A stretch of DNA of 64,000 nucleotides from Dawidia cretensis (GCF_018598175.1 NZ_JAHESE010000025.1:1-64000), one strand, 5' to 3'. Numbered from the stretch's first letter, positions 7,957-64,000 are shown. Notes: generated from the letters alone by a model not told the origin. Translations and numbers: made by a program.

Positions 7957-9306
7957 TCATCGTTCTGCGTGAACAAACCATGCAATATACTCCTCCAGTT
8001 TGAACGATAGATAATACGGGAGGTTAAGGAGCAAATACTCTTTGTTATTTTGTGTTTGTATTTTATCGACGCGCAATTGCCCTGGATAGCACCTGACGGC
8101 GAAATGATGATCGACACGGTCCATAAAAAGATGAAGGGAGCGTAATGCGCCTGTCGGAGTCGATTTCACTTCCACCGGAATCAACATATCTTCAAACTTA
8201 ACGACATAATCGACTTCTGCCGCGCTCGCTGCTTTATCACGTACCCAAAAACTCAGTCCATGAAGTACTTCAAACCGCGAGGCCAGAATTTCCTGCCCAA
8301 CGATATGCTCCGCTATCATACCCTTATAAACCACTTCAAGGTCAGTAGCCCCAAGCACAGATTTCTGGAGACCTGCAAAATGGTTTAGCATGCCGGTGTC
8401 CAGAACATGAAGGCGAGGAGACTTTTTTAAATCAGGGCGGATCGGCAATTCCGTGTGGACTGTCGGATAGACCAAATTAATGAGCATCGCCTTCTCGAGT
8501 GTTCGCAAAGCCTCTCCTACTTCCCGACGGCCATACATAGAATTTCCAAAACCCTGGAATTTTATTCGCGAACCCGCCTCGATATAGACGGCTGTAATAG
8601 CGTGGCGAATGATCTGAGTTAAGTTCACATTACGCGCATACTTCTCAACGTCGTTACTATAGGATACGATGAGAGATTCGTAAATTCTCGTCAAAGCTCC
8701 AAGATCTCTATTTTCCGCATAATGACTCACAACCTGAGGCATGCCACCAATCAACGCGTAGGTATGAAAAAGCTGCAACAACTTATCATGGGCGAAGTCA
8801 TTTCGTGGCACGATGTCAAACTGGCTCGCGGCAGATGACTCGCCCATTGCACCCAGAAACTCATTGAATGACACCGGACGAATAACCAGATACTCAACAC
8901 GCCCTACCGGCATATTGACCGATTCATCCAAAACGGTTTCGAGCAGCGATCCGGCAGCAATAACATATAAATCGGGGAACTCCTCGTAGAAATACCGGAG
9001 CAGTCCGATGGCCCTGGGCTCTTCCTGAATCTCATCTATAAAAATTAGCGTATCCTTAATGCTCCGATCCTTATCCTTCAAAAAGAAGAGTGCTTCCGTG
9101 AGTCTTTCGATGTTATCAAAATCACGGAACGGCTTGGCATCTTCCGACTTCTCGAGATTCAGGTAAATAAATTGTTTGAATGATTTGGCAAAAAGCCTAA
9201 CCGCCGTAGTCTTTCCAACTTGACGAGCACCCCGTAAGATTAAAGGTTTCCGATAGGGACTCCCTTTCCAACTTCTGAGCTGATTTTGAATATTTCTAGA
9301 AAACAT
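7957..9306 (-). CDS. AAA+ ATPase, DUF4143-type (ATP-binding protein)
   Basis: Walker A GARQVGKTT, Walker B IFIDEIQ, and the C-terminal DUF4143-like region common in Bacteroidota. Confidence 0.75.
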   Translation of the reverse strand: MFSRNIQNQLRSWKGSPYRKPLILRGARQVGKTTAVRLFAKSFKQFIYLNLEKSEDAKPFRDFDNIERLTEALFFLKDKDRSIKDTLIFIDEIQEEPRAIGLLRYFYEEFPDLYVIAAGSLLETVLDESVNMPVGRVEYLVIRPVSFNEFLGAMGESSAASQFDIVPRNDFAHDKLLQLFHTYALIGGMPQVVSHYAENRDLGALTRIYESLIVSYSNDVEKYARNVNLTQIIRHAITAVYIEAGSRIKFQGFGNSMYGRREVGEALRTLEKAMLINLVYPTVHTELPIRPDLKKSPRLHVLDTGMLNHFAGLQKSVLGATDLEVVYKGMIAEHIVGQEILASRFEVLHGLSFWVRDKAASAAEVDYVVKFEDMLIPVEVKSTPTGALRSLHLFMDRVDHHFAVRCYPGQLRVDKIQTQNNKEYLLLNLPYYLSFKLEEYIAWFVHAER

Positions 9307-21094: not shown

Positions 21095-24037
21095 ATGATC
21101 AAACTCAATTTATATGTCAGGGGCATTGCCATGCTATTCTTCTGTTTTGCTCATGACAACACCGCCATAGCACAGATAACATGGCCGCAGGGGCAACTCC
21201 TCCCCTCCTTTCCGGCGACAGCCCCAACGCAGGATTTAATCAATTGGGGGCCAACCAGTGTTCTCGGCAACATGACCCGCTGGGAAGCCGAAGGTACTTC
21301 ACTTGGTCACAAAACCGGACGCCTGGAAACCGACGGCTGGCTTTGCCAGACAGGAATTGATGCTCCGAATGAGCACATGATCTACGGGCCTTATGTCAAC
21401 AATGTACCAGCAGGACCTAACATTGCCGAGTTTCGGATGAAGATCGATAACAATACTGCCAATAACGATCCGGTGGTTGATATCGATGTTAGAAATGCCA
21501 CGACCGGGGCAAGCCTGGCGTTTCAAACGGTCACCCGCCAGCAATTTTCCATCGCGGCAAACTACACAAGTTTTAGATTGCCCTTTACAATGCCGGCCAA
21601 TAATCAATCCATTGAATTACGTGTCTATTGGCGTGGGGGTGCCTATATAAAGGTAGATTGGGTTGGCGTACAGGCTGACAATACGGTGGGTGAGCAACTC
21701 CTGTTCACTTCATTGAAAGGAATTGTGAACCGTACCCAACCGCGTATTTTCTCGTACGAAGGTGATGCTTTTGCGGAAGGACCCTATACCTGGTTGCAAT
21801 CACTGGGATTGACGTGGACTGAAGTCGCTAACAGATGGTCCTTGATTACGAAGTACCGTAGCGAATTAAATGGGTTGATTGTATACGATCCATCCCAGAT
21901 ACACACCGTCAACCTGGCAACGATGTTAGCGAAAGACAGAAAAGCACTCATTGTTTCTCCTGCATTCATATCGACGTTAACAGCCGCACCGTATAACCTA
22001 CCCGTGCTCATGGACTTGCGCGGACAGTTTACCAGCAAGCTGCACGTGTACCAGACACTCTTCAATACCTACTGGCCAGGCATTGATCACCGGCTATTGG
22101 TTGGATTGAGTCCGGAAGCACATGTACTGGGCATGCGTGAATATGCCGTCGCATTAGGCGCCGCAACGATCTGGCTCGACCCAAATGTGGCCGGCGAAAG
22201 TGAATTACTGAACAGCTTTTTATCGTCCATGCCCGCGGGTGCCAATTTTATGGGCTGGTGGCCGGAAGAGGGTGCCGGTGTAACGCGGGCATCCCAGTAT
22301 GGTATCGCTACGGTTGCAAGCGATTATGCTACTAATCTATCGGTTCACAGTGGCATGCCCAGGACCATTACTAGTAAACCCATTCCTCCGAAACCGGCCC
22401 TGCAAAACAAGATCTACGTAGCCTTCATCTTAAGTGACGGCGACAACCTGCAGTATGTCGAGCACCTGATGCGCAAGCTATGGGCCAATCCAGATCGCGG
22501 CTCCGTGCCGATTGGATGGACTGTTTCTCCAGCCATGGTAGATGCCATGCCCGGCGCACTAAACTTCTATCATCAAACGGCTACTAACAACGACAACCTC
22601 ATTTCGGGGCCTTCCGGTTATGGCTACGCTTATCCAAACAATTTCCCAAACCAAAGCTCGCTCGATCAGTTTGTTGCCAAGACTGAAGAGTACAACCGCC
22701 GGGCCGGGCTGCGGGTGCTTACTGTTTGGAATACCATCACAGGGGGTATTAACCAAAACGTTGGACAAAGCTACGCTACGTATGCGCCATCACTCCTTGG
22801 CTTAACAGCGCAAAATACTGGCGGTCCACTTAGTATATACAATCAAAGTCTTCCCAGTTTTCCACTTTCGTGCAACTACTGTTGGAATGAACAAAACATA
22901 CAGGAGCACATTGCCAATGCTGCTGCGGGATGGAATGGCTCCGAACCCCGGTTCATCATTATTCAGTCTCAGCCATGGCAGGACATGAAACCCAGCAATT
23001 TTAAGAACGTTGCCAATTCTCTTAGTGCTGATTATGTGGTGGTACGTCCGGACCATATCTTCCAGCTCATCCGGGAAAAGAATGGGCTCCCCACGGATCC
23101 AGGTCCCGCCAGGTTAGTTACCGTGTACAAAGATTGTAACTATGGCGGCACTTCTACGGGACTCGACGTAGGCGACTATAATTTGACGCGCCTGAGATCA
23201 TTGGGCGTTCAGGATGATGATATTTCATCCATACGACTCACGCAAGGGTTTAACGTTATTTTATATCAAGATGATAATTTTACAGGCGGTTCCCTTGCCG
23301 TTAATTCCGACTTAAGTTGTTTTGATGGTACCTGGAATGACAAAGTTACTTCCATTCGAATACTTGCCAACACGCCCGCCTCCACGCTGATACAAGCCGA
23401 AAGCTACTCCAACATGAGCGGTGTCCAAACCGAAGCAACAACCGACACCGGTGGAGGACTGAATGTGGGCTATGCCGATACGGGCGATTGGATGGCCTAT
23501 AGCAACATCAATTTCCCGACCACAGGTGCTTACTTACTAGAATACCGGGTGGCCAGTGCGGTAAACGGAGCACGAATCTCGGCTGACCTGAATGCGGGCA
23601 CCACGCCGTTGGGCGCACTCGATGTGCCCAACACGGGGGGATGGCAAACCTGGCAGACGATATCGCACACGGTGAATGTGAATGCAGGAACGTACAATTT
23701 CGGCGTCTTCATCCAAAACACCGGCGTTAACCTCAACTGGATCAGGGTTACCAACGTAGGGACAGGAGCAACCGCGAGAGCAGCTTCACCCAACATAGAA
23801 AAAGAGGCGACGGCAACTTTCGGATTATATCCAAACCCTGTTGAAAACACGCTTTATTTCAGCACTGCTATGAAAGGAGCAAACGTGAGCGTTGCCAACC
23901 TTCAAACAACGGAGGTGCTGTCAGAAACACGGGTGGATGAAAATGGACTGGACGTCTCGGCATTGAAACCAGGACTTTACTTTGTTATTCTCAACAAGGA
24001 TGGAAACAGAACAGTAAAGCGATTTGTCAAGAAATAA
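21095..24037 (+). CDS. T9SS-secreted multidomain carbohydrate-active protein: putative glycoside hydrolase core + beta/gamma-crystallin-like domain + CBM6-like domain + T9SS C-terminal sorting domain
   Basis: Signal peptide. The CBM6-like block has the conserved G..Y..V pattern (residues ~785-900). The crystallin-like block is YKDCNYGG...IRLTQGFNVILYQDDNFTGG. The last ~75 aa (YPNPVENTLYF...GLYFVIL) match the T9SS type-A sorting domain. Confidence 0.7.
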   Translation: MIKLNLYVRGIAMLFFCFAHDNTAIAQITWPQGQLLPSFPATAPTQDLINWGPTSVLGNMTRWEAEGTSLGHKTGRLETDGWLCQTGIDAPNEHMIYGPYVNNVPAGPNIAEFRMKIDNNTANNDPVVDIDVRNATTGASLAFQTVTRQQFSIAANYTSFRLPFTMPANNQSIELRVYWRGGAYIKVDWVGVQADNTVGEQLLFTSLKGIVNRTQPRIFSYEGDAFAEGPYTWLQSLGLTWTEVANRWSLITKYRSELNGLIVYDPSQIHTVNLATMLAKDRKALIVSPAFISTLTAAPYNLPVLMDLRGQFTSKLHVYQTLFNTYWPGIDHRLLVGLSPEAHVLGMREYAVALGAATIWLDPNVAGESELLNSFLSSMPAGANFMGWWPEEGAGVTRASQYGIATVASDYATNLSVHSGMPRTITSKPIPPKPALQNKIYVAFILSDGDNLQYVEHLMRKLWANPDRGSVPIGWTVSPAMVDAMPGALNFYHQTATNNDNLISGPSGYGYAYPNNFPNQSSLDQFVAKTEEYNRRAGLRVLTVWNTITGGINQNVGQSYATYAPSLLGLTAQNTGGPLSIYNQSLPSFPLSCNYCWNEQNIQEHIANAAAGWNGSEPRFIIIQSQPWQDMKPSNFKNVANSLSADYVVVRPDHIFQLIREKNGLPTDPGPARLVTVYKDCNYGGTSTGLDVGDYNLTRLRSLGVQDDDISSIRLTQGFNVILYQDDNFTGGSLAVNSDLSCFDGTWNDKVTSIRILANTPASTLIQAESYSNMSGVQTEATTDTGGGLNVGYADTGDWMAYSNINFPTTGAYLLEYRVASAVNGARISADLNAGTTPLGALDVPNTGGWQTWQTISHTVNVNAGTYNFGVFIQNTGVNLNWIRVTNVGTGATARAASPNIEKEATATFGLYPNPVENTLYFSTAMKGANVSVANLQTTEVLSETRVDENGLDVSALKPGLYFVILNKDGNRTVKRFVKK

Positions 24038-24045
24038 TTAAAAGA

Positions 24046-24072
24046 AAGAGGCTGTCAAACGGACAGCCTCTT
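24046..24072. terminator. Bidirectional rho-independent terminator between convergent genes
   Basis: AAGAGGCTGTC-aaacg-GACAGCCTCTT: 11-bp perfect stem, 5-nt loop, A/T-rich flanks on both sides. Confidence 0.6.
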
Positions 24073-24118
24073 CAAAATACGAACGCCAAAATGGTTACAC
24101 GTTCCTAAAAATGAGAGC

Positions 24119-24910
24119 TTAAAGGCTTCTTCCCAACCCAGCCCAGTCAAACCCGCTATCGGCACGATTATGCTTCAACGCAGGAATTTGCGTCGTAATA
24201 ATCACGGTCGTGCCAGCGATATCGGTCCTGTGATGTTGAGGAATCTCTTGCTTCACCCCTTTTACCATGGTGAATTCAGCACGCTCAAAAAATTCCTGAA
24301 AGGATCGCTTCAACTGGTTAATATTGTTCATGCCGTAGAATAGAACTACCCGGGGGGTATGCTCCTGAATTCTACTCAGTATAGTTTGCACCCGTTGCTG
24401 ATATACCTGTTCCTCGTATAGCTTTCGTGTTTTAAGCATGCTCTTCTGCGGAAGATCGAGCCAGCTATAGTACCAGGCATGGTTGTGTGGACTGGGTAAT
24501 GGATACAATGCGATTAACGCCTCGGAAGCACGTGCGAAATCATTCTTTTGGTAGTGAAGAAGATCCGGAAGCTCTCTGCCCTGATAACCATGCGCAAACG
24601 CGATCAGGTTTTTCCAGATGCCATGCAATACTGCATGGTCACCGAACCTGTAATCGTGGAGGGTGGCGAACAAGTTCGCCCGTGGCCCGTCCGTCCGGAA
24701 GGCTACATGCCGGTATAGGTCACGAAGATCGCACAGCACGGGAGATTCAGCAGGTTTCAGGTTATAGAAATAGTCAAACTTCTCGGCAACCTCTTCCGGC
24801 AGATCACCGCCACCTTCCTCATAGCCTACAAACCACACCGGTGCGTCCCAGGATCCGAATCCATAAAAGCTCTCAAGCCAGTATTGGAGGGTGTGCTCTT
24901 TTATCAGCAT
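24119..24910 (-). CDS. Hypothetical protein, last gene of the PspA-flotillin-giant ATPase operon
   Basis: 263-aa ORF 26 bp downstream of the giant ATPase gene on the same strand. No recognisable family. Confidence 0.5.
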   Translation of the reverse strand: MLIKEHTLQYWLESFYGFGSWDAPVWFVGYEEGGGDLPEEVAEKFDYFYNLKPAESPVLCDLRDLYRHVAFRTDGPRANLFATLHDYRFGDHAVLHGIWKNLIAFAHGYQGRELPDLLHYQKNDFARASEALIALYPLPSPHNHAWYYSWLDLPQKSMLKTRKLYEEQVYQQRVQTILSRIQEHTPRVVLFYGMNNINQLKRSFQEFFERAEFTMVKGVKQEIPQHHRTDIAGTTVIITTQIPALKHNRADSGFDWAGLGRSL

Positions 24911-24936
24911 ACGGGTAAATCTTTAGTTCCTGCCGG

Positions 24937-27900
24937 TCATGGCTTTCCCTTGATTGCCCTTGCAATCGCCTCGAGATGCTCGTTAAACGAGCTCAACTGT
25001 ATCAGCATCTGACCCGACGTGTCGCCTTCGCTCAGCATTCCAAATTTGTTATTCTTCACAAAGATCTCCTTAATTTGCCTCCAGCGCGCTCCTTCCTGAT
25101 CGTTGAGGAAACCTGCAATTTCTTTTAGTCGAAGCAGGTTAGCTTCTGCATCCGATGTCAGCGTTTGAGATTCACCGTCGTAATGGGAAAGAATCAATGT
25201 ATTCACTTCGTCAGGATTCATAAGCGGCACAATTTTACCCGCCATCTTATTCATATTCCGATATGACCCTTGTAACTTGAAAGCAGGCTCGGTACGGTAT
25301 GCATCTTTCATGGCAGCGCTCGCAATATACTGTTGATTCACGAGCATCACCACATCCCGAATCCGGATGATGTTCCTGAGCACCGCGATGGCGTCGTCTA
25401 TCTCCTGCCGGTTATAATTTCCTTCCAGTTCCGGCAACAGCTCACCGTTCGTTTCGACATAACTGATAAGCTTGTACAAATCATCAAAACTGCGACTACT
25501 GATATGCTGCAAATACCGATTCTCCGCCACGCAGTTTTCAATCAAACTCAATCTGAACAGTTGATCGGTATTGCCGATCACATCTCCCAGGTTATAGACA
25601 TCGGCACGGTTCGCCAACATGTCCGGGATCTTAAACTGCTCGCCACTCTCTGTATATGGGTTGCCCGCCATCACCACGCAGAAACGTTTTCCGCGCAGAT
25701 CATAGGTTTTGCTTTCGCCTTCAAAAATGCCATCCATTTTCCGCTGACCGTCGGCGAGGGATATGAACTTCTGTAGAAACTCCGGACTACAATGCTGGAT
25801 GTCGTCGACATACAACATCACGTTATCGGCCATTTCAAAGGAAAGGTTTATTTTCTTGAGCTCTGCCCGCGCGCCTGAAGTCGTCGCTTCCTGCGGATCA
25901 ATGGATGTGATACTGTGCCCGATGGTTGGACCATTGATTTTCACAAAGTGAAGCCCCATCGTTTTTGCCAGGTACTCCATCAACGTCGTTTTACCATAGC
26001 CCGGTGGCGATACCAGCAGCAACATTCCCATCCGCGCAGTGCGTTTATCGTCGCCTGCCGCACCGATCTGCTTGGCCAGGTTGGCGCCGATCAACGGAAA
26101 GTATACCTCGTTAATGAGACGATTACGCACAAACGAGCTCAATACTTTCGGCTCCAGCTCACTGATCTTCAATTGCTGGCGATATTCCCGTACCAATTGC
26201 TCTTTGAGCTGATTAAAAGAAGTAAATGCAGGAACAACCGCGTCAAAATAACTGCGCATCTTCCTCAGAAAGTGATGAAAGTTTAAGGTGTATTGACCAT
26301 CACTTTGTATCACTGCGTGTGTGCCTTTTAAGGCAACAAGATCAATTGAGTCCGCCGCCGCTCTTTCGCGGTAGGCATGATCCTTAAAAAGAAGCAGGCA
26401 AGCTGCTTCATCGACATATTGCACGTCGCCGGCATCCGGTTGCGTTTGAAGAAATGCGTGCAGCCAGCTTTGGATTATATAAAATCGCTCTGCAGTATCG
26501 AAACCCGAGCTATTTACCTCTTGTAAGAACAATCCTGCCCTTTTCTGTGCGTGCAAATATCCTTCGAACGCTTTTTTGAGATGCAGCGCCTGTTGACTGC
26601 CCGTAAAAAACTTACCGGTTGAAAGCTCTAGATACAAATACTGCGCTACATCCTTTGCGCCTACTGATTCATACACAATTTTCGACTGCAAGAATCGCGA
26701 TGATAATTCTTCTTCTACGAAACTTGCACGCTTGCTTTGAGGAAAACTCTCTTGTATGGAATAAGCAGCGGTAATCAATTGTTGAAGCTTATTCTGTGAA
26801 GCCTCGTCCAGGCCAAACCAGAACAGTTGAGCGGCCACACGAACGGCAGGAGAAAACTGCAGGATGCCTAATTCTGCCTGAAGTTTTTTAAGTCCCTGGT
26901 AGATAACCGCAGCATCGGTATTATGAACGCCTTTGAGATATGCGGCTGCATAATCACGTTCTGTCCGGTCATTCAGAAAAGTTTCATAGCTCCAGGGCTC
27001 ATGATGCTGGAGACTTTCGAGATAAGTTTGATACGCAAGATATTCAGAACGATAGATCTCCCTGTTTTCAGATATCAATTCCTGCTCCCAGATGGCTCGA
27101 TGCTGATAGAGCGATTCGGCGGCCACCTGCTTATAGAAGCTGGTCCCCAGGAGATGAAAATATAAGCTCTCATTTCTGCGAATGATTGTCAGATCCAGCA
27201 CTTGCTTATTGACAACAAACTTGTAATTACCGAGTGCAATTATATTTTGGCCATCAACAAAAAGGTCCGTCTTGTCTTTGAGATTTCGCAAAGCAGTTTC
27301 CTGTGCGACTTTCACAAGATTCTCCAGGTTTTCTGCTTTCGCTACGTCGCCCAAATCTTTTAAATCGCCCATCAGGTTACGTACCTTGTCTACCATCAGG
27401 TCCGTAGAAAAGAATGCGTAGATACTTTCCTTATCGTTAAACGACTGGGCTTTATTCTCGATGTTTTTTAGCACCCGCAAGCCAACCTGTTCCAGTGCTG
27501 TTGTGCGCTTGTTCAGCTGCGCGATCAGCATCTCCTTCTTGCCATTGAAGGCTTTGATTACTTCGTCGCGCTTATCTGAAATTTTAAGAATAAATTCATC
27601 AAAGTCGGCAAACTTGCTCTCGAGGTCTTCCACCTGAATACTCACCTTCGTAAAATATTCTTCACACTTTTCAGGCGATGTCGAAAGATCAAGGAAATTT
27701 ACAATGCTTTGATCCAGTAATGTAAGCTGCGCATAAAACTGACCTGTTGACTCCTGCGTTCTCAATGCGGTGGTGATACGTACCACTTCTGCTTTCACTT
27801 CGTTCAGTGATGCAAAAATCAGTGAGATCTTTTCAACGATGCGCGTGGTTTGCGTCGTGTCTTCAATTTTCAGGCTGTTCAGAATATCGATAAGCATTTC

Positions 27901-29778
27901 CAGTCCATTGGAAATCTCTTTTATCGCCAATTCTACGGGCTGAGCGTCTATCACTTTCGCAACACCGCTCGCGGCTTTCCTGAGCGCAGCAACTTTTGCC
28001 TCATACGGCGCCAGCGCCTCCTCTTTCAATAAAAAAGCAACGGTATCCTGTGAAAGTGAGCTATTATATTGCGCGAGCGTCTCTTTCAGTTCCTGAACCG
28101 CATTCGTGTCAATATACCGAACGTTCTGCAGATCGATAACAGCACCCTGCGTACTCCTCGTTGCCGCAAGCAGGTTTACAAGTTGATCCAGTGACGTGAT
28201 GGTCGCCCCTTTTATGTCGACCACCAGCTGGTCCACTCGCTTTTGCGTCGCCACGAGATTGTCCTTCGCGTGCTGGCGCTGCGTTTGCACCTTGGCAAAC
28301 TCATCTATCGCGGTGTTTGCAATATTCCGGATGTTGGTCAGTGGAGTCGCGAGATCGAATGTGCCTTCATCCTTTAACCAGAAATAGGAATCGACAATAT
28401 CGTTCGCACGTTTATGTACGTCCTCGTAAAGATCTTCGTAGCTATCTTCCTTTTGTAAGAGCTGTATGATCTCCTGGCTTTCGCTCATCGCACTTACGAT
28501 ATCCTTATTGCCGATCTTATACAGCACATTATTGCTCATCGCTGTATTTTCCTGAAGCGTAGCGGTATACGGGGTTTGCCAGATTTGCACCTGGTGATGC
28601 CTTACCGCTTCATTCTCGGATCTAAAATATACAAGCATCCCATCATTAAATACCGTAAAGCCATTACAGATGATCGGCGTCTCCACCTTTTGCGCAATCA
28701 TATTGTATGACATTAACACATAGGTATTTGTCTGCTTCTGATAGAATACATAGAGAAAGTCCTCACCATTAGGAGAAGCAACGCTACTATTAAATTCCAG
28801 CTCCGATACCTGTAGCTCGAATATTTTGTGTTCTCCATTTTGCAGGTAATAACCATTCGGAAAGATTATCCCCTGGTTGTCCGGCAGCAGAACGCCGGCG
28901 TCGAGCAGACTATTGATGGGAAGAACCTGTTTCGTCCGCACATTAAAAACGTAGGCGCGAAAGCCCTCCCCATAGGGCTTTATTTTGACAGGGATGAGAT
29001 TCCCGAGGTCTGCATAGTGATATTCCGCATCATCCAGTTGCTGGTCTTTATTCGAGACGGGATCAGAATAAACTCCTTTCCCGGAATCTGTATTGTTTTC
29101 AACCTTAAACGTAATATCACCATGAAGCGCCTCTATGAAAACTTTGTCTAAAATCGAGATATGCGGATATAAACCCAGTCGGCGATTGTTGAGGTCGGTT
29201 TTAATCCAATCGAATTCATGTTGTGGCGCTTTTTTTACTTCATGAATACTTCTGTCGTCGACATAGACCAGCTTCTCGTCTTTGATCAACCATTTAAAAG
29301 CTTTTCGGTCGTCAGGGCTTTTGCTGGTTTGAAAAACCATGAACAGATGGTTCTCTGTCTTGACAAATTTGGCAAAGATTGAATCCCGGTAGTACTTGTA
29401 AAGATTGCTGAAGTCCGTGATAAAATTCTCGTCTTCAATTAATGTAAGCGGCTCCGGGCCGAAATGATCACCCGTGAATTTATAGATACTGAAAACATCG
29501 CTGAGCTTGATGTTTTCACGCAAACCAAAATGGACGTTGTAACCGAAGAGAGTAAGATCACCAAATGCCATAATACCACGCGGTACGCCGCTGTTGACAG
29601 TGGTAATACGTTGGTTGGCGATCAGCTGAAATCCCGTGGAATTGAATATAACCTTGCGGGCATCATTCAGCCTGGCCAGTCTTTCGATTAAATTCAACCG
29701 TTGCTCTTCCAGGCGCTTCCGGATGATCTCATATGTCCCGGAATCCAATCCAATATTTGTATTTTCAGTACCTGCCAT
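24937..29778 (-). CDS. Giant (1613 aa) MoxR/dynein-related (AAA_5-type) AAA+ ATPase with a ~1250-aa N-terminal extension of unknown function
   Basis: Walker A LLLVSPPGYGKTT encoded near nt 26014. Walker B MLYVDDIQH. MoxR-like sensor region VVMAGNPYTESGEQFKIPDMLANRADVY. Long predicted coiled-coil segments upstream of the AAA module. Confidence 0.75.
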   Translation of the reverse strand: MAGTENTNIGLDSGTYEIIRKRLEEQRLNLIERLARLNDARKVIFNSTGFQLIANQRITTVNSGVPRGIMAFGDLTLFGYNVHFGLRENIKLSDVFSIYKFTGDHFGPEPLTLIEDENFITDFSNLYKYYRDSIFAKFVKTENHLFMVFQTSKSPDDRKAFKWLIKDEKLVYVDDRSIHEVKKAPQHEFDWIKTDLNNRRLGLYPHISILDKVFIEALHGDITFKVENNTDSGKGVYSDPVSNKDQQLDDAEYHYADLGNLIPVKIKPYGEGFRAYVFNVRTKQVLPINSLLDAGVLLPDNQGIIFPNGYYLQNGEHKIFELQVSELEFNSSVASPNGEDFLYVFYQKQTNTYVLMSYNMIAQKVETPIICNGFTVFNDGMLVYFRSENEAVRHHQVQIWQTPYTATLQENTAMSNNVLYKIGNKDIVSAMSESQEIIQLLQKEDSYEDLYEDVHKRANDIVDSYFWLKDEGTFDLATPLTNIRNIANTAIDEFAKVQTQRQHAKDNLVATQKRVDQLVVDIKGATITSLDQLVNLLAATRSTQGAVIDLQNVRYIDTNAVQELKETLAQYNSSLSQDTVAFLLKEEALAPYEAKVAALRKAASGVAKVIDAQPVELAIKEISNGLEMLIDILNSLKIEDTTQTTRIVEKISLIFASLNEVKAEVVRITTALRTQESTGQFYAQLTLLDQSIVNFLDLSTSPEKCEEYFTKVSIQVEDLESKFADFDEFILKISDKRDEVIKAFNGKKEMLIAQLNKRTTALEQVGLRVLKNIENKAQSFNDKESIYAFFSTDLMVDKVRNLMGDLKDLGDVAKAENLENLVKVAQETALRNLKDKTDLFVDGQNIIALGNYKFVVNKQVLDLTIIRRNESLYFHLLGTSFYKQVAAESLYQHRAIWEQELISENREIYRSEYLAYQTYLESLQHHEPWSYETFLNDRTERDYAAAYLKGVHNTDAAVIYQGLKKLQAELGILQFSPAVRVAAQLFWFGLDEASQNKLQQLITAAYSIQESFPQSKRASFVEEELSSRFLQSKIVYESVGAKDVAQYLYLELSTGKFFTGSQQALHLKKAFEGYLHAQKRAGLFLQEVNSSGFDTAERFYIIQSWLHAFLQTQPDAGDVQYVDEAACLLLFKDHAYRERAAADSIDLVALKGTHAVIQSDGQYTLNFHHFLRKMRSYFDAVVPAFTSFNQLKEQLVREYRQQLKISELEPKVLSSFVRNRLINEVYFPLIGANLAKQIGAAGDDKRTARMGMLLLVSPPGYGKTTLMEYLAKTMGLHFVKINGPTIGHSITSIDPQEATTSGARAELKKINLSFEMADNVMLYVDDIQHCSPEFLQKFISLADGQRKMDGIFEGESKTYDLRGKRFCVVMAGNPYTESGEQFKIPDMLANRADVYNLGDVIGNTDQLFRLSLIENCVAENRYLQHISSRSFDDLYKLISYVETNGELLPELEGNYNRQEIDDAIAVLRNIIRIRDVVMLVNQQYIASAAMKDAYRTEPAFKLQGSYRNMNKMAGKIVPLMNPDEVNTLILSHYDGESQTLTSDAEANLLRLKEIAGFLNDQEGARWRQIKEIFVKNNKFGMLSEGDTSGQMLIQLSSFNEHLEAIARAIKGKP

Positions 29779-29908
29779 TGCGAAAAAAGATAAACGTTAC
29801 ATCCGCGTAAATTGCTGCCGTTCGAATCGGCTGAACTGCGACCTCCACCGACTCCCGATTCATGCTTATTGATCCCCGGCTCAACAGAGACCCCCGATGA
29901 TCGACGTA

Positions 29909-31936
29909 CTACAACTTCCTGTTAGACAATCCCAAACTATTTGCCAGGTTGGCGAGGTTCAGCAGCGATGGACGATCCTCTTCCGAGCTGTTCTGTTGCA
30001 TTTTCAGAATCAGACTTGAAATGGTCAGGTTTTTAATATCGTTCGTGGTGATATTGTACTTATCGGCAAAGTCGCGGATGCGACCTAACAGATCACCACC
30101 ATTTCCTCCTTCACCCAACAGCGCAGTTTTGATCTGTGTTGCATTTTCACTTTCGTTGATCAACCGATCGAACCCTTTCGCGTTCGAAATCTGGTTGACA
30201 ATATTCTGGAAAAACATCGTTTCACCACCCACAATATCAATCTTGGCAGACTTCAACGCTTCTCCCAATATCGTGGCCTGTGCATCGGCAATATGCTTCT
30301 GAATATCGATCTGCGCGAGCGCGATCTCCTTTTCTTTCGTGAGGAGCAACTTAAACTCTTCATGATCTTTTCCAACAGCATCCAGCTTCTTCATCGCTTC
30401 TGCTTTTTCCTGGATGCCGGCAGCTTCCGCCAGAGCCTTTTCTTTCGTCACTTCAGCTTCCGATAAACCTTCCTTCCGTTTCGCTTCTGCAATTTTCTCA
30501 ATCACCGTCGCGTCAACGATACCTTGTCTTTCTACCGCTTCTGCTTTGGCTATCATAACTTCTGCTTCAGAAAGCCCCCTTGTTGCTTCCTCACGTGCCT
30601 GGGCGTCGGCCAGTATTTTACGTGCTTCTGCCTGTTTCACCGCGGCTTCTTTTTTAGCGTCCGCATCAATCACCAATTGTTTTGCTTTTTCCTCCGCGGC
30701 CTTCTTTTCAGCCTCTGCAGCCTTTACGGTATAGATCAGTTTTTCCTCGGCCTGTTGGCTGGCCTGTGTGATCCCTACTGTCTTATTACGTTCTACCTGA
30801 CGGAAAGCCTCCAGGTCTTTTACCCCCTGTTGCTCTTCCACCACACCTTTTTCAAGGCGCACACGGTCGCGAATGACATCCTGGATGTTCTTACGTTCCA
30901 CTTCCACTGTTTTCTCCTTTTCAATTTGAGCCAGTGTTACGATCTTTTCGCGCTCGGTAGCTTCCAATGCGCGATCCTTTTCTACACGCTCAGTTTCCAC
31001 CGCCTCTGTGCGTTGCTTGTTCTTTTCCGCAATGATGATCTGACGTAACTTATTCTCCTCCTGTACGGCAAGAGATTCCTCCGTTTTGATCCGAACCGTC
31101 TCAGATTTTAGTCTTTCCTCTTCTCTTACCTTAATGATCTCGGCTTGTTCGCGTGAGCGCACATTATCAATTTCTCTACGCTGTTTCTCTTCTTTTTCGG
31201 CCATCTGGCGTTCCAATTCCAGGATGGATTCACGGGCCTCGACGTCTTGCTTCTTGATCACTCTTTCTTCCTCTCGTTTGATCAGATTGGCCTTTATGTT
31301 CTGCTCTGCTGTAAGCTCGGTGATCTTCTTAATACCCTGTGAATCGAGGATGTTTTGTGGGCTGAGAAATTTCATCTCTGTCTGCTCGAGGAAATCAATA
31401 GCGCAGTCGTCGAGGATATAACCGTTCAGGTCGGTTCCTATAATATTCAGGATTTCAGTTCTGAACTCGCGACGCGCTTCATACAACTCGATAAAATCGA
31501 ACTTCTTACCTACCGTTTTTAACGCTTCCGAGAATTTCGCTTCGAAAAGATTGCGAAGTGTTTCCGTATCGCTGGCTCTTTCCGTACCGATAATCTGGGC
31601 TACGTTCAACACATCATCAGCGTTCTTATTTACGCGAACGAAAAATGCCACTTTGATATCAGCACGGATATTGTCTTTACAAATAAGACCATCTTGCTCC
31701 AGGCGGTCGATCTGCAGTTTCTTTACGGAGATATCCATGATCTCCATTTGGTGGAGAATAGGAATGACATACATTCCTTTATTAAAAGCAACGTGACCAC
31801 CCCCCACGCCCGTGCGCACAATTGCTTTTCCTTGCGGAATCTTTTTATAGAAAGTCGCAAAGGCAAAGAGAACAATGAAAATAAAGAATACTATTCCACC
31901 AATAAATATTAAACTAATGCCGCCAAGTAGGTCCAT
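29909..31936 (-). CDS. Flotillin-family SPFH/band-7 protein (YqiK-like)
   Basis: N-terminal TM helix, PHB/SPFH domain and a very long EA-rich coiled coil. Confidence 0.85.
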   Translation of the reverse strand: MDLLGGISLIFIGGIVFFIFIVLFAFATFYKKIPQGKAIVRTGVGGGHVAFNKGMYVIPILHQMEIMDISVKKLQIDRLEQDGLICKDNIRADIKVAFFVRVNKNADDVLNVAQIIGTERASDTETLRNLFEAKFSEALKTVGKKFDFIELYEARREFRTEILNIIGTDLNGYILDDCAIDFLEQTEMKFLSPQNILDSQGIKKITELTAEQNIKANLIKREEERVIKKQDVEARESILELERQMAEKEEKQRREIDNVRSREQAEIIKVREEERLKSETVRIKTEESLAVQEENKLRQIIIAEKNKQRTEAVETERVEKDRALEATEREKIVTLAQIEKEKTVEVERKNIQDVIRDRVRLEKGVVEEQQGVKDLEAFRQVERNKTVGITQASQQAEEKLIYTVKAAEAEKKAAEEKAKQLVIDADAKKEAAVKQAEARKILADAQAREEATRGLSEAEVMIAKAEAVERQGIVDATVIEKIAEAKRKEGLSEAEVTKEKALAEAAGIQEKAEAMKKLDAVGKDHEEFKLLLTKEKEIALAQIDIQKHIADAQATILGEALKSAKIDIVGGETMFFQNIVNQISNAKGFDRLINESENATQIKTALLGEGGNGGDLLGRIRDFADKYNITTNDIKNLTISSLILKMQQNSSEEDRPSLLNLANLANSLGLSNRKL

Positions 31937-31993
31937 AGATAGATTTTAAAGTTAGATTTTTGAGAAAGGTGTTTCTATATAGAGTAATGTCAA

Positions 31994-32665
31994 TCAAACG
32001 ATATTGGAGAGGTTGATCTCTGGGACCACCAGGTAAAATTTTTTATCGGCCGATTCGCCGGCAATCATCACTTCCGAATCATATTCGATCGAGTCGCCTG
32101 TTTTGCTTTGTACGTTGATGCGGATAATATCGTGCTCTATCTTTACTTCCGCTGCTCCGATCTTATCGCCGGAAATGGTACTTCGCATCCGGGCAATCCT
32201 TCCCAGAAGCTCCTGAGGTTCTTCACCATTATACCCCATAGCATGATAAACTTTGACCAACGGCCTGGTGGCATACCGCGTAATGACATACGCGACAAAA
32301 AAAGCAGGTATAAGAACGAATACAGATTTCCAGCCCCAGCTTCCCAAACCCAACGCCACCGATGACGTTAACGTAATGATCCAGGCAAGGAATTTAAAAA
32401 CGGAATATACTACCATGAAGGGCACTTTCCCGATGTTCACAAATTCGAGTGCCTTCTGCAAAAAAGGCTTGTCTGCCACGGCATCATCCGTGTCAGTATC
32501 AACATCCGTATCTACATCTGCCCCGTGCACGGGAAAATCGCTATCAACTCCGGAATCTCCAAACAGATCTCCCGCGACGAATGTAGTTATCCAATAAATA
32601 GCGGTTATTCCCGTGAGAATGGTCATGATGGCATTACTCAACGGATGAAACAGCAGGTCTGTCAT
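31994..32665 (-). CDS. NfeD/YqiJ-like membrane protein (flotillin partner)
   Basis: Two to three TM helices, an acidic D/T-rich linker and a C-terminal OB-fold-like beta region. Sits directly upstream of the flotillin gene, as in yqiJK / nfeD-floT pairs. Confidence 0.5.
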   Translation of the reverse strand: MTDLLFHPLSNAIMTILTGITAIYWITTFVAGDLFGDSGVDSDFPVHGADVDTDVDTDTDDAVADKPFLQKALEFVNIGKVPFMVVYSVFKFLAWIITLTSSVALGLGSWGWKSVFVLIPAFFVAYVITRYATRPLVKVYHAMGYNGEEPQELLGRIARMRSTISGDKIGAAEVKIEHDIIRINVQSKTGDSIEYDSEVMIAGESADKKFYLVVPEINLSNIV

Positions 32666-32696
32666 ACTTGATATCGGTAGGTTGAATGTTAAGATT

Positions 32697-33398
32697 TTAT
32701 GATATCCCTAATTTGTCTTTGATCGCCTGAAGGTCTTTCTCAATAGAGAATGAATCGTTTTTTAACAGGCTGTCCAATTCATCTTTCTTACTATTCTTAT
32801 CACGGGATATTTCACCGTAGGCTTTCGAGAGTGCTTCCTGATCTTCTACCTTTGATTTCATACGCTCGAGCATGCCAATTATTCCGTTGCTATCGACATG
32901 GGCCAGTTGTTTGTTTACTTGTACCGTTGCATTGCTAACGTTCAACCTGGTCTTCAACGTCCGCAACTCTTTTTCCCACTTCTCCATATTCTCCTTCAGA
33001 ATTTCGGCATTGCGCTGCATCTCCCTGGAAGATTGCTGCAACGCAACCGCTTGCAGCCCGAGCTCTTCTGACTCTACAGAATATCTTTTATAGAGCGACA
33101 ACGCTTCACGGGCAAGCTCTTCCGCCTTGCCCAGGTCTACCTGCCCGGACTGTGCTTTTTGCATGATCAATATAGCTTTTTCGGCATAACTTTTCGACTC
33201 CTGCTGGCGGTGAAGCTGATCATTTTCTGTGCGAATAGCCAGGGCCTTTACTTTGGCATAGGCCTCCGTTGCTTCTGCAAGATCTGTGCGCAGCTCACGA
33301 AGGCCCTGCTCCGTCATTTTAATGGGATCCTCCATTTTATCGACAGCGGCGTGAATTTCCGCCTGTCCTATTCTGAAAAGCCTTTTGAAAATATTCAT
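32697..33398 (-). CDS. pspA: PspA/IM30 (Vipp1) family protein
   Basis: N-terminal MNIFKRLFRIGQAEIHAAVDKMEDPIKM aligns with the E. coli PspA start [28 protein letters not shown]. All-helical coiled-coil composition. Confidence 0.8.
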   Translation of the reverse strand: MNIFKRLFRIGQAEIHAAVDKMEDPIKMTEQGLRELRTDLAEATEAYAKVKALAIRTENDQLHRQQESKSYAEKAILIMQKAQSGQVDLGKAEELAREALSLYKRYSVESEELGLQAVALQQSSREMQRNAEILKENMEKWEKELRTLKTRLNVSNATVQVNKQLAHVDSNGIIGMLERMKSKVEDQEALSKAYGEISRDKNSKKDELDSLLKNDSFSIEKDLQAIKDKLGIS

Positions 33399-33439
33399 GA
33401 CTGATAATTTTTAAGTTAAAAACAATCGTTGCGTCAAAA

Positions 33440-33838
33440 TTATAGCTTCGAAAAATCGATGATCTGCTGAGAGAACTCGCTCAATAATAAACCAAGAGAG
33501 TTTAAAGCACTCTCAAATTCATTAAAGTCGATATTCTGAAGCTGCATGGTATAACGGAACAGCACCCGATCGCCTTCTTCGTTAATGACAAAGGCGCCGT
33601 GAATAGTGTCCCTGTTTTTTTGCAGCAGCCTTTTGAACATGTCCATGCTGTCTTCCCGAAAGGAGAAGAGAAACTGCTCCATAATAAGGATAGGAGGCGC
33701 GACGCCAAGGATCAAATTATGGATACCGTCGGATGGATTATCGATCTTGAGAATGCCATGCTGTTCATTCTTATACAGTATTCTGCAATTAAGCCTCCGT
33801 GCGAAATCTTCGATGGTCTCAAAATGGTTCATGAGCAT
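33440..33838 (-). CDS. Hypothetical protein, possibly YbjN-like; first gene of the operon
   Basis: 132-aa soluble protein 41 bp upstream of pspA on the same strand. The YbjN-like call is a weak impression only. Confidence 0.4.
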   Translation of the reverse strand: MLMNHFETIEDFARRLNCRILYKNEQHGILKIDNPSDGIHNLILGVAPPILIMEQFLFSFREDSMDMFKRLLQKNRDTIHGAFVINEEGDRVLFRYTMQLQNIDFNEFESALNSLGLLLSEFSQQIIDFSKL

Positions 33839-33925
33839 AGTTTCTGCTGACTGAACAAATCTATCGACTAGTTTTCAGAATTGCAAAAAATATTAGCATT
33901 GTGATAATGAAAATTACAATTATCT

Positions 33926-34612
33926 TTGACAGGAATGACAAAGATTGGCGCCAATATCAAAAAGATCAGAACGACCAAAGGGCTTAGCCAGCAGGCGTTT
34001 GCGGACTTATTTGAATTAACCAGGGGTAACATCTCCTCCTATGAGGAAAACCGGGCGGAGCCGAAAATCGAAACCGTTATACAAATTGCCAATTATTTTA
34101 GCATCCCCCTGCATCAATTTATTACGGAGAATCTCTCCATACACGAAATATTGAAATATAACGGCGATAAGCTGATCGAGGATGAAAATCATATCATAAA
34201 TCTTCAGCTCCGGCAGGTTCCATTCATGAATGATGCCATTTATATGAAATGCTGCTATCAGGAATTGCCATTTAATGATTGGAATAGTTTTCCGAAGCTG
34301 ATCTTGCCGGAGGTAAACAATCACAATATGTTCGCCTTGAGCTTTAATCCCAACATCGCTCGCCACGAATCGCTCCCATCCTATCAAATGAACGACGTAT
34401 TGATTTTCGAAGAGTTAACCCAACAGAATATCCACCTCTGTCAGCACAAAACCGGCCTTTTTACTGCCGAGCGCGAGATCATGATCGGCCAGTATGAAAT
34501 GAAGGACGAAAAAGTTGACCTGGTCTTAAATGATTTCAAGCGGGAGCGATTCGATTTCAAGTCCGCACGGCGATTCTGGAAATTGTTTGCAACCTATCAG
34601 CATGAGAAATAA
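33926..34612 (+). CDS. XRE-family HTH transcriptional regulator, divergent from the pspA operon
   Basis: KIRTTKGLSQQAFADLFELTRGNISSYE Cro/C1-type HTH at the N-terminus. Confidence 0.7.
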   Translation: MTGMTKIGANIKKIRTTKGLSQQAFADLFELTRGNISSYEENRAEPKIETVIQIANYFSIPLHQFITENLSIHEILKYNGDKLIEDENHIINLQLRQVPFMNDAIYMKCCYQELPFNDWNSFPKLILPEVNNHNMFALSFNPNIARHESLPSYQMNDVLIFEELTQQNIHLCQHKTGLFTAEREIMIGQYEMKDEKVDLVLNDFKRERFDFKSARRFWKLFATYQHEK

Positions 34613-34700: not shown

Positions 34701-35840
34701 ATGACACAGGCAACAAAAATTTCAGTAGCATCTCTTCTTCTGACACTGGTCCTTCATACCACGGGCTTGTTTGCACAGTCCGGTGGCACCTATCAAAACC
34801 CTTTGCGGGTGACATTTGGAGATCCCTATGTACTGCAAACAAAAGGTAGATATTACATGTATGGTACCGGCGGTGGTGCTAAAAATGGATTTGCCGCCTA
34901 TTCCTCAGCCGACCTGGTAAACTGGAAAGACGAGGGTCAGGTGTTTTATGCAAGCAATCACCATGGCTGGAGCGACTCCACCGCTGCCTGGGACGGGGCA
35001 TACTGGGCGCCTGAAGTATACGAATACAATGGAAAGTTCTACATGTTTTACAGCGCGCAATGGAAGCAGAACCCCAACAACGAGCTGGAGAATTTTCGCA
35101 TCGGAGTGGCCGTGGCCGATAGCCCGACGGGACCGTTCATCGACCTGACCAATAAGCCTGTTTTTGATCCGGGCTATCCTGTCATCGACGCCAATGTACT
35201 GTTCGACAAAAGCGGCAAAATTTACCTGTACTATTCCCGTTGTTGCTATAAGCACTCCGTGGAAAGCGAAGTCGCTGCCTGGGCCAAACAAAAGGGATGG
35301 TTCGATACCATAGAGGAAAGCTGGGTCTATGGCGTTGAGCTGAAACCCGACTTCAGCGGCGTGATCGGCGAGCCCGTGCTGCAATTACGTCCGCCCGTAA
35401 AGATGGACGATAAGCAGGCTGACTGGGAAAGTCGCTCCGTGACTTCAAAAGAAGTGAACCGCCGCTGGACAGAGGGCTCGGTCATTTTCAAAAAAGGAGA
35501 TACCTATTACATGATGTATTCCGCCAATTATTTCGGGGGAAAGAACTACGCCGTGGGATATGCCACGTCGAAAAGCCCGCTGGGCCCGTTCACCAAAGCA
35601 ACCAACAATCCGGTATTGCAGAAAGACACAGAAAACGGCGGCGTGGTGACCGGGACGGGGCATAACAGTGTGACGTACTCACCCGACGGAAAAGAGATGT
35701 TTTGTGTATATCATGCCCGCACGTTGGCGACAGGCGAGGAAAGGGTCGTTTTTATCGATCGTATGAAGATCTTAAACAACGGAACGCTTGTTGTGGACGG
35801 GCCTACCACCATACCGCAGACGGCGCCGGGAAGCAGATAG
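34701..35840 (+). CDS. Glycoside hydrolase family 43 protein (five-bladed beta-propeller), secreted
   Basis: Signal peptide, then GDPYVL...YYMYGT and later GH43 blade motifs (WAPE, DANV). Confidence 0.75.
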   Translation: MTQATKISVASLLLTLVLHTTGLFAQSGGTYQNPLRVTFGDPYVLQTKGRYYMYGTGGGAKNGFAAYSSADLVNWKDEGQVFYASNHHGWSDSTAAWDGAYWAPEVYEYNGKFYMFYSAQWKQNPNNELENFRIGVAVADSPTGPFIDLTNKPVFDPGYPVIDANVLFDKSGKIYLYYSRCCYKHSVESEVAAWAKQKGWFDTIEESWVYGVELKPDFSGVIGEPVLQLRPPVKMDDKQADWESRSVTSKEVNRRWTEGSVIFKKGDTYYMMYSANYFGGKNYAVGYATSKSPLGPFTKATNNPVLQKDTENGGVVTGTGHNSVTYSPDGKEMFCVYHARTLATGEERVVFIDRMKILNNGTLVVDGPTTIPQTAPGSR

Positions 35841-63759: not shown

Positions 63760-64000
63760 ATGAAACTATATAACAGCGCTCGTTTTGTTTTATTCAGTAT
63801 CTTTTTAGTTGGAAGCCTGCAAAATGCGATTGCACGGTCATATACCGTACCCCTGATAGGAAGCTCCGCAGCAGCACTGGGCGCAACAGACTGCCCGCCA
63901 GCACCTGCTTCCGCGACCGACGTCCATATGATCACCAACGCTTCGCAGCAGGTCACCCTGTCCGTTGCGATGGTGGCCGGTGCGAGCGGATATGCCTGGT
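63760..64000 (+). CDS. 5' part of a secreted protein ORF that runs off the window
   Basis: ATG at 63760, signal-like MKLYNSARFVLFSIFLVGSLQNAIA, and no stop before the window end. Confidence 0.35.
   Translation, partial: MKLYNSARFVLFSIFLVGSLQNAIARSYTVPLIGSSAAALGATDCPPAPASATDVHMITNASQQVTLSVAMVAGASGYAW

Follow-up and report, generated by a model that had tools for sequence, protein, structure and literature searches.

The rule that genes for NfeD and SPFH proteins go together in operons dates from 2009 (PMC2636767), PspA is linked to an SPFH protein in B. subtilis (PMC8581546), and Popp et al. (2022) reported PspA with Band-7/FloT, NfeD and helix-turn-helix (HTH) regulators. SPFH cages house the AAA+ protease FtsH (PMC13220708). 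According to a 2025 review (PMC7619361), PspA appears to have no Vps4-like ATPase in bacteria, and what its newly found partners do is undetermined. The closest described system is an operon type reported by Ravi et al. (2024, mSystems 9:e00847-23, PMC11237479; bioRxiv 2020). The operon that they describe has a CesT/Tir-PspA pair and a YqiJ/YuaF protein with three transmembrane (TM) segments, and it also includes a Band-7/flotillin protein and an AAA+ protein with beta-propeller and coiled-coil parts. Here we examine a locus of this type at positions 24119 to 34612 of a 64,000-nt stretch of the Dawidia cretensis genome (NZ_JAHESE010000025.1), which we call the window; feature coordinates are positions in the window. 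The locus has six genes on one strand, the fifth of which encodes a giant ATPase of 1613 amino acids (aa), and a divergent gene for an XRE-family regulator.

In Table S3 of Ravi et al. there is an operon from Dokdonia donghaensis (ANH61663.1) with the same order that we see in Dawidia and a divergent cHTH gene (written '<-cHTH+Protease CesT_Tir->'). Ravi et al. also report that abbreviated versions without PspA are widespread in bacteria and archaea and that some Proteobacteria have a PLD gene, they draw an ESCRT-III/Vps4 parallel for PspA-AAA+ pairs, and they make the same functional guess for the operon as we do. The genes, their order, the divergent cHTH regulator and the phylum are all as in Dawidia and there is no architectural difference; Dawidia adds a gene for a UDG-like protein after the ATPase. 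A preliminary description of this DNA had placed the giant ATPase outside the known modules and had called the locus a candidate undescribed system. We have given up that claim because the operon type was already catalogued by comparative genomics (2020/2024). In the portions of their paper that we read, we did not see the synteny that we quantify below, or the pair of operator palindromes, O1 and O2, that we document here. On balance, and with moderate confidence, we think that the locus is the copy in Dawidia (Cytophagales) of a conserved envelope-stress operon and that the ATPase remodels flotillin/PspA assemblies. The features of the locus are:

33935..34612, plus strand: XRE-family regulator, 225 aa, N-terminal HTH and a C-terminal domain of ~150 aa
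33440..33838, minus strand: CesT/Tir-like small chaperone, 132 aa, first gene of the operon (PF22550 CesT_Tir_1, 6.4e-47)
32697..33398, minus strand: PspA/IM30-family protein, 233 aa, ESCRT-III superfamily (PF04012, 2.4e-36)
31994..32665, minus strand: putative YqiJ/YuaF (NfeD-like) membrane protein, 223 aa (YqiJ_N 0.0021, below cut-off)
29909..31936, minus strand: flotillin-family SPFH protein, 675 aa (hhalign to E. coli YqiK 99.9%)
24937..29778, minus strand: giant cytoplasmic AAA+ protein, 1613 aa (DUF3686, DUF7902 and AAA)
24119..24910, minus strand: 263-aa gene, predicted UDG-like fold, not a conserved component (family without a Pfam model)
33882..33898, no strand assigned: putative operator O1, 17-bp palindrome TGCWAA-N5-TTWGCA, exact match, in the intergenic region between XRE and the operon
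33856..33863, minus strand: TAGATTTG, candidate TAnnTTTG (Bacteroidota -7-type) operon promoter element, read from the sequence
34087..34103, no strand assigned: putative operator O2, copy of the palindrome with 1 mismatch, in XRE codons 51-57, 205 bp from O1
24045..24073, minus strand: terminator-like hairpin, 12-bp stem and T-tract, 46 nt past the stop of the 263-aa gene

Our list of open reading frames (ORFs) has the six minus-strand genes running from 33838 down to 24119, with gaps of 41, 31, 57, 130 and 26 bp, and a plus-strand ORF that diverges from them and ends at 34612. This reproduces exactly the coordinates given in the preliminary description for six co-directional genes, 26-130 bp apart, and the XRE gene that diverges from them. 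The CesT/Tir-like gene is immediately upstream of the PspA/IM30 gene, with the 41-bp gap between them. The mechanical ORF for XRE begins at TTG 33926, and the likely true start is ATG 33935, in which case the XRE/CesT intergenic region is 96 bp long.

The evidence that these genes belong together comes from other genomes. We scanned an alignment of the ATPase against one genome per GTDB species, and at least 481 stretches encode a relative. For synteny we took the best 80 of these loci, all from Bacteroidota, and searched their six-frame ORFs with the window proteins. The 80 loci span Cytophagales, Chitinophagales, Sphingobacteriales, Flavobacteriales and Bacteroidales. The flotillin gene is directly upstream of the ATPase gene in 74 of them, which is every locus with enough flank (74/74), as the remaining six are contigs that end within ~1.3 kb upstream of the ATPase. 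The YqiJ-like gene is present in 72/80. XRE, the CesT-like gene and PspA are found in 61/80, always jointly and in identical gene order, and XRE is divergent in all 61 loci that carry CesT-PspA. With 61-74 of 80 species-level genomes sharing this order, the clustering of the operon genes is far beyond chance. Sequence identity follows taxonomy, gene order is stable across the phylum, and there is no further flanking gene family common to more than 10 of the 80 loci. The preliminary description had linked PspA, the NfeD/YqiJ-like protein, flotillin and the giant ATPase and had counted XRE with them, and the comparison bears this out, with the order kept in 61 of 80 loci, flotillin beside the ATPase in 74 of 74, and O1 in all 61 XRE/CesT intergenic regions.

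Eleven amply flanked loci keep YqiJ-flotillin-ATPase and have no XRE, CesT or PspA gene within 10 kb. Nine of these are from Myroides/Flavobacterium (L035, L036, L040, L043, L045, L046, L052, L056 and L081) and two are from Dysgonomonas (L028 and L058). Outside Bacteroidota we found full-length ATPase homologues (33-42% identity) on large replicons in Pseudomonas, Streptomyces, Deinococcus, Vibrio, Photobacterium, Halomonas, Proteus and Nonomuraea, and we examined three neighbourhoods, those on the Pseudomonas, Streptomyces and Deinococcus plasmids. On plasmid pQBR103 of P. fluorescens SBW25 (L093, 84437-97641), a gene for a small protein and then an SPFH/flotillin gene precede the ATPase, and a yjfI-pspA-polyamine cluster is directly upstream of this triad. 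On the Streptomyces plasmid a small protein and a flotillin-family gene precede the ATPase, with no PspA nearby. On the Deinococcus plasmid PspA is likewise absent nearby, and the ATPase is preceded by two unannotated genes (198 and 652 aa), which we matched by size alone. The tightest link is thus the one between small membrane protein, flotillin and ATPase, to which PspA and its chaperone are often added. Since flotillin and ATPase stay together without PspA both in Bacteroidota loci and beyond the phylum, we regard theirs as the obligate pairing.

Two side observations concern the same neighbourhoods. Nine of the 11 loci without PspA have a different conserved upstream gene, of ~560 aa. The upstream cluster on pQBR103 is of the E. 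coli type (yjfI-pspA-DUF2491-DUF350-DUF1190-glutathionylspermidine synthase), with a rhomboid protease gene inserted after pspA, and a PLD gene is found ~8 kb downstream.

The flotillin assignment depends on profile comparison. The 675-aa protein has no match in Pfam, NCBIfam, PADLOC or the sequences of the PDB, and a 19-sequence profile searched against the PDB likewise gave none. A profile built from 19 orthologues does align with E. coli YqiK (hhalign probability 99.9%, E 1.4e-33, 383 columns), with an alignment that starts at the TM helix and takes in both the TM and SPFH parts, so we take the protein to be a YqiK-type flotillin, in agreement with the earlier call. It has one N-terminal TM segment (residues 9-27, from hydrophobicity) and a long, charged, coiled-coil-like region (residues 201-560, E/K/R/Q/A fraction 0.60). 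The 223-aa protein encoded upstream of it has three hydrophobic segments and an acidic D/T-rich loop. Its similarity to E. coli YqiJ is weak (hhalign 64.6%, E 6e-5, 68 columns), and a profile search of the PDB had no match.

The match to PF04012 upholds the PspA/IM30 call. The 233-aa protein has no TM segments by hydrophobicity and is roughly equidistant from E. coli PspA (6e-7) and YjfJ (4e-5). We rejected it as a canonical phage-shock PspA because it scores 52.8 bits against the TIGR02977 equivalog, which has a cut-off of 242.95; PspB, PspC and PspF genes are also missing from the locus. By these comparisons it is a member of the PspA/IM30 family and not the proteobacterial orthologue. For the 132-aa protein, the tentative label 'YbjN-like' was fair as far as it went, as there is a weak YbjN match in Pfam (1e-5), but the CesT_Tir_1 match (6.4e-47) is the stronger one. 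We could not detect similarity between this protein and E. coli YjfI.

The giant ATPase has Pfam matches to DUF3686 (1.7e-160, residues 30-466), DUF7902 (587-665) and AAA (~1253-1373). It has a single AAA+ module (~1240-1420) followed by a C-terminal helical region, and no TM segments by hydrophobicity. Its sequence is identical to a database record from Fulvivirgaceae bacterium PWU5 (Dawidia). The Walker A motif SPPGYGKT, the Walker B motif LYVDDIQH and the motifs MAGNPYTE and IPDMLANRAD are invariant in Bacteroidota, Pseudomonas, Streptomyces and Deinococcus, which points to purifying selection on nucleotide handling. Across phyla the AAA+ module is 59-65% identical, compared with 24-42% for the remaining sequence and 24-36% for the N-terminal 1200 residues. 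Residues 1-1180 have no sequence relative in the PDB. Matches of the AAA+ profile to the PDB are confined to ~35 residues around Walker A; the best are Afg2, Rix7, VAT and p97 (E ~2e-5), followed by midasin and RuvB. With hhalign the AAA+ profile reaches 95.7% for RuvB (over the P-loop region), 91% for FtsH and 11% for RavA.

These comparisons do not agree with the 'MoxR-type' name that the preliminary description gave to the ATPase. Pfam has no AAA_3 match, with AAA and AAA_5 about equally weak, the score to RavA, which is the MoxR protein of E. coli, is 11% against 91-96% for FtsH and RuvB, there is no MoxR chain among the PDB matches listed, and the locus has no VWA gene. On this evidence the name is a database label (a Joint Genome Institute name) that is unsupported.

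The conserved neighbours and the AAA+ matches both bear on what the ATPase acts upon. It could be a bacterial Vps4 analogue dedicated to PspA, with flotillin and YqiJ serving only to recruit. PspA and the ATPase do share an operon in 61/80 loci and on pQBR103, the weak AAA+ matches in the PDB are mostly to classic-clade unfoldases (Afg2, Rix7, VAT, p97), and Ravi et al. draw the ESCRT-III/Vps4 parallel for such pairs. Even so, we consider this explanation unlikely. The flotillin-ATPase pair occurs without nearby PspA in the 11 Bacteroidota loci, in Streptomyces and in Deinococcus (the latter by gene size), Pfam shows neither an MIT domain nor any other known ESCRT-III-binding domain, and the PDB matches are limited to the Walker A-B stretch. 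We also rejected assignment of the ATPase as a Vps4-type disassemblase, since it has no MIT match and its likeness to the classic clade covers ~35 residues around Walker A. We favour a model in which flotillin comes first over one of a 'Vps4 for PspA', because flotillin is the invariant neighbour (74/74, and SPFH/flotillin in Pseudomonas and Streptomyces) and because PspA is dispensable in the 11 loci, in Streptomyces and in Deinococcus.

The 263-aa gene behaves differently. It adjoins the operon in 2 of the 80 loci, on different sides: after the ATPase in Dawidia soli (L009), as in the window, and on the opposite side, after XRE, in a Flammeovirgaceae metagenome-assembled genome (MAG; L038). 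In a Cytophaga MAG (L004) it is next to XRE. Ohtaekwangia and Chryseolinea, with ATPases that are 88-90% identical, have no 263-aa gene nearby, and homologues of 59-66% identity adjoin unrelated genes such as those for a UvrD-like helicase, an SNF2 helicase and DUF1801. The family is large, with 701 clusters at 50% identity (E <= 1e-3), and none of 31 diverse members matches a relevant Pfam family. An AlphaFold2 (AF2) model built with 31 sequences is good, with a predicted local distance difference test score (pLDDT) of 90.2 and a predicted template modelling score (pTM) of 0.90, and the top 21 Foldseek matches of this model are all TDG or MUG (best E 2.4e-3, probability 0.99). By hydrophobicity the protein has no membrane features. 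The model thus predicts a soluble protein with a UDG-like fold, which would not be a subunit of a membrane machine.

The preliminary description had counted this gene as the sixth component, and one could picture a six-gene machine with the 263-aa protein as an integral subunit. The 26-bp gap, the absence of a terminator before the gene and the strong terminator after it would suit such a machine, as would the same arrangement in Dawidia soli and the position beside XRE in L004 and L038. We find it very improbable nonetheless, because 78/80 loci, those of Ohtaekwangia and Chryseolinea among them, have no such gene nearby, its homologues sit beside unrelated genes, and the predicted soluble fold has no membrane features. 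We conclude that the 263-aa gene is a passenger and not a conserved component of the operon; across Bacteroidota it was the giant ATPase that co-occurred with flotillin and PspA, and not this gene. Since there is no terminator between the ATPase gene and the 263-aa gene and a strong hairpin lies beyond the latter, the gene is likely co-transcribed with the operon in Dawidia, incidentally. In the Dawidia genome, transcription of the unit probably ends at the hairpin at 24045..24073.

A UDG-like fold beside an ATPase that databases name a 'DNA repair ATPase' (Pfam DUF3686, NCBI) raises the question of whether the two work together in DNA repair. The hhalign score to RuvB over the P-loop region and the modelled fold of the neighbour would fit. 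We give this idea very little credence, as Pfam found no DNA-binding or nuclease domain in the ATPase, its constant neighbours are membrane proteins, and the UDG-like gene is adjacent in 2/80 loci. We found no mention of DUF3686 in the literature, nor of 'DNA repair ATPase' together with flotillin. With no DNA-related domain and with membrane proteins as its constant neighbours, the protein gives no support to the database name, which is possibly a legacy label that arose from coiled-coil similarity to SMC/SbcC-type proteins. PspA itself matches SMC through coiled-coil similarity (NCBIfam).

Regulation of the operon appears to involve the XRE protein and two copies of a palindrome. The protein has an HTH (HTH_19 3.8e-11 and HTH_3 7e-11 in Pfam). 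We rejected an S24/LexA-type repressor, since none of 17 orthologues has a Peptidase_S24 match at E <= 1 and hhalign to LexA gives 0.4%. In the C-terminal half the residues that never vary are P96, P125, A134, H167, G174, G185, L196, L198 and N199, with no Ser or Lys among them. The 'Protease' label that Ravi et al. give this part in Table S3 was not confirmed by sequence.

O1, with the pattern TGCWAA-N5-TTWGCA, is present with at most one mismatch in 61/61 XRE/CesT intergenic regions and exactly in 53 of them, typically 60-70 nt upstream of the CesT start. Two copies are present in 31/61. Its density is ~8 per kb in these regions, compared with 0.013 per kb in the remaining 1.74 Mb of locus DNA, and shuffled intergenic controls had a mean of 0.1 matches of 61. 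TTTG / TAnnTTTG is a promoter type of Bacteroidota. In the window, TAGATTTG (33863..33856, minus strand) comes 20 nt after a TTTG contained in the right half of O1, and 44/61 intergenic regions carry TAnnTTTG on the operon strand, usually 17-18 nt beyond the operator. This fits an overlap of O1 with a Bacteroidota-type operon promoter, in which case a bound XRE dimer would occlude the operon promoter.

The second copy, O2, is found at the same position in XRE in 52/60 loci. The residue at codon 56 varies (S/G/C/N), yet 58/61 loci have NGC there. When this codon encodes Ser it is AGC in 31/31, compared with 16% of Ser codons elsewhere in XRE genes, and when it encodes Gly it is GGC in 18/18, compared with 18% of Gly codons elsewhere; the codon for Ala52 is never GCG. 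O2 is thus kept at synonymous and non-synonymous sites alike, and is maintained as DNA and not merely as protein. The spacing between O1 and O2 is ~175-224 bp, clusters near 175, 193, 204, 215 and 223, and is 205 bp in the window, which suggests DNA looping or autoregulation. Elsewhere in the window there is an exact palindrome at 8374-8390, inside a 449-aa ORF (7957..9306, minus strand), which is probably there by chance, and there are copies with one mismatch at 37999-38015 and 63818-63834.

A large ATPase and membrane proteins under an XRE-type regulator, with an HTH that resembles regulators of defence loci (RmrA, CapH and control proteins) and with copies on megaplasmids, could also suggest an anti-phage or abortive-infection system that acts through the membrane. 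We think this quite improbable. For the structural genes PADLOC-DB 2.0 gave trivial P-loop (mad8, 9e-5) and coiled-coil (JetC, 6e-4) matches only, the phage collection that we searched has no homologue of the ATPase, and the neighbours are carbohydrate and housekeeping genes (GxGYxYP glycoside hydrolase, GH43, HAD hydrolases, OmpA, radical SAM), not defence or mobile ones. Identity tracks taxonomy and order is stable, unlike in typical patchy defence islands. The preliminary description had suggested membrane remodelling driven by ATP, repair or defence. Gene linkage makes the remodelling plausible, but PADLOC, the phage collection and the neighbours gave no support for defence.

The flanks of the locus in the window, both on the plus strand, are a gene at 21095-24037 for a 980-aa putative glycoside hydrolase of the GxGYxYP family, with CBM6 and a type IX secretion system sorting tail, and a GH43 enzyme gene at 34701-35840, 89 bp downstream of XRE. 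These two genes are not kept beside the operon in other genomes. Searches of the locus proteins with NCBIfam and PADLOC added nothing of substance to the Pfam calls. A sigma-70 promoter scan of the window was at chance level, using a model that is unsuited to Bacteroidota, and terminator counts in the window were also at chance, with the hairpin at 24073..24045 as the sole strong one. The 130-nt gap between flotillin and the ATPase has no unusual RNA structure (z = +1.0).

The mechanism that we propose for the conserved operon is as follows. XRE would repress the operon, and probably itself, via both palindromes, possibly through a DNA loop, and an envelope signal would relieve this repression. 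The flotillin and its NfeD-like partner would then form a scaffold at the inner membrane, on its cytoplasmic side. The CesT-like chaperone may hold PspA until it is needed, at which point PspA would polymerise on damaged membrane. The ATPase would dock via its N-terminal DUF3686/coiled-coil part and spend ATP on assembling, remodelling or recycling, with the flotillin assembly as its first target and PspA polymers as its second. A bolder version, which we offer tentatively and would not bet on, is that the DUF3686 ATPase is the missing ATP-driven motor, the counterpart of Vps4/NSF, for both flotillin cages and PspA polymers, under XRE looping operators.

Several observations count against the reading of a flotillin/PspA remodeller in an envelope-stress operon. 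The Walker B motif is Asp-Asp and not Asp-Glu in every phylum examined, so that ATP may be hydrolysed slowly, or its hydrolysis may have a regulatory role. For the 433-residue C-terminus of the ATPase the AF2 model, made with a shallow alignment, is poor (pLDDT 57.8, pTM 0.43), and its Foldseek matches are generic AAA+ proteins (MCM, NSF, RuvB, Cdc48, dynein and Lon) at a template modelling score of ~0.2, which we did not use to assign a clade. The YqiJ assignment of the 223-aa protein, made from sequence, is weak. The C-terminal ~150 residues of XRE had no Pfam match at E <= 1 in the 17 orthologues. In some genomes flotillin and the ATPase are separated by one or two unrelated genes, which means that the two are not always translationally close. 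We also found no experimental study of the operon, or of any member, in the literature. The inserts between flotillin and the ATPase, in locus coordinates, are:

L065, 8502-9956
L075, 8445-9944
L023, 8258-9919
L044, 8796-9878
L031, 9075-9788
L028, 8583-9866
L058, 9242-9883

These inserts encode beta-lactamase-family proteins, DUF4369 with AhpC/TSA thioredoxin-like proteins, alpha/beta hydrolase, peptidase M54 and DUF2628. They may be lineage-specific cargo or clients.

The operon is an obvious place to ask whether an ATPase drives the dynamics of flotillin and PspA in bacteria. It is widespread, with at least 481 matches in the genomes of GTDB species, and extremely conserved, and its carriers include the culturable Sphingobacterium, Chryseobacterium and Myroides as well as the well-studied Pseudomonas plasmid pQBR103. 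The operator pair is a concrete handle on regulation. There is also corrective value in the analysis, as the module is one that has been catalogued, one supposed part turns out to be a passenger, and neither of the database names, 'DNA repair ATPase' or 'MoxR-like', has support.

Besides the operon type of Ravi et al., four kinds of known systems can be compared with the Dawidia locus. E. coli yqiJK and B. subtilis yuaFG(floT) share with it a flotillin, as the 675-aa protein is a clear homologue of YqiK, and a gene for a small multi-TM partner directly upstream. They are without the giant ATPase, PspA and XRE, and by sequence the Dawidia partner is weakly YqiJ-like. In B. subtilis pspA-ydjGHI (samGHI), PspA is encoded with an SPFH protein, as in Dawidia, and in E. 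coli yjfIJ(KLMC) it is encoded with a partner of the CesT/Tir superfamily (YjfI-YjfJ); plasmid pQBR103 has the yjf-type polyamine genes right beside the SPFH-ATPase pair. The accessory proteins of these two systems differ, with YdjG/H in one and DUF2170 instead of CesT_Tir_1 in the other, and neither has an AAA+ protein, unlike the Dawidia operon. HflK/C-FtsH and prohibitin-m-AAA pair an SPFH scaffold with an AAA+ protein at the inner membrane, which offers an analogy for the proposed mechanism. FtsH is anchored in the membrane and has a protease domain, whereas the Dawidia ATPase has neither a TM segment nor a protease domain, and its N-terminal domains, 1200 residues in all, are unrelated. 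With ESCRT-III/Vps4, finally, the locus shares the linkage of a gene from the ESCRT-III superfamily, PspA, to an AAA+ gene, but the Dawidia ATPase has no MIT, its AAA+ module is not demonstrably of the classic clade, and its linkage to flotillin is tighter than its linkage to PspA.

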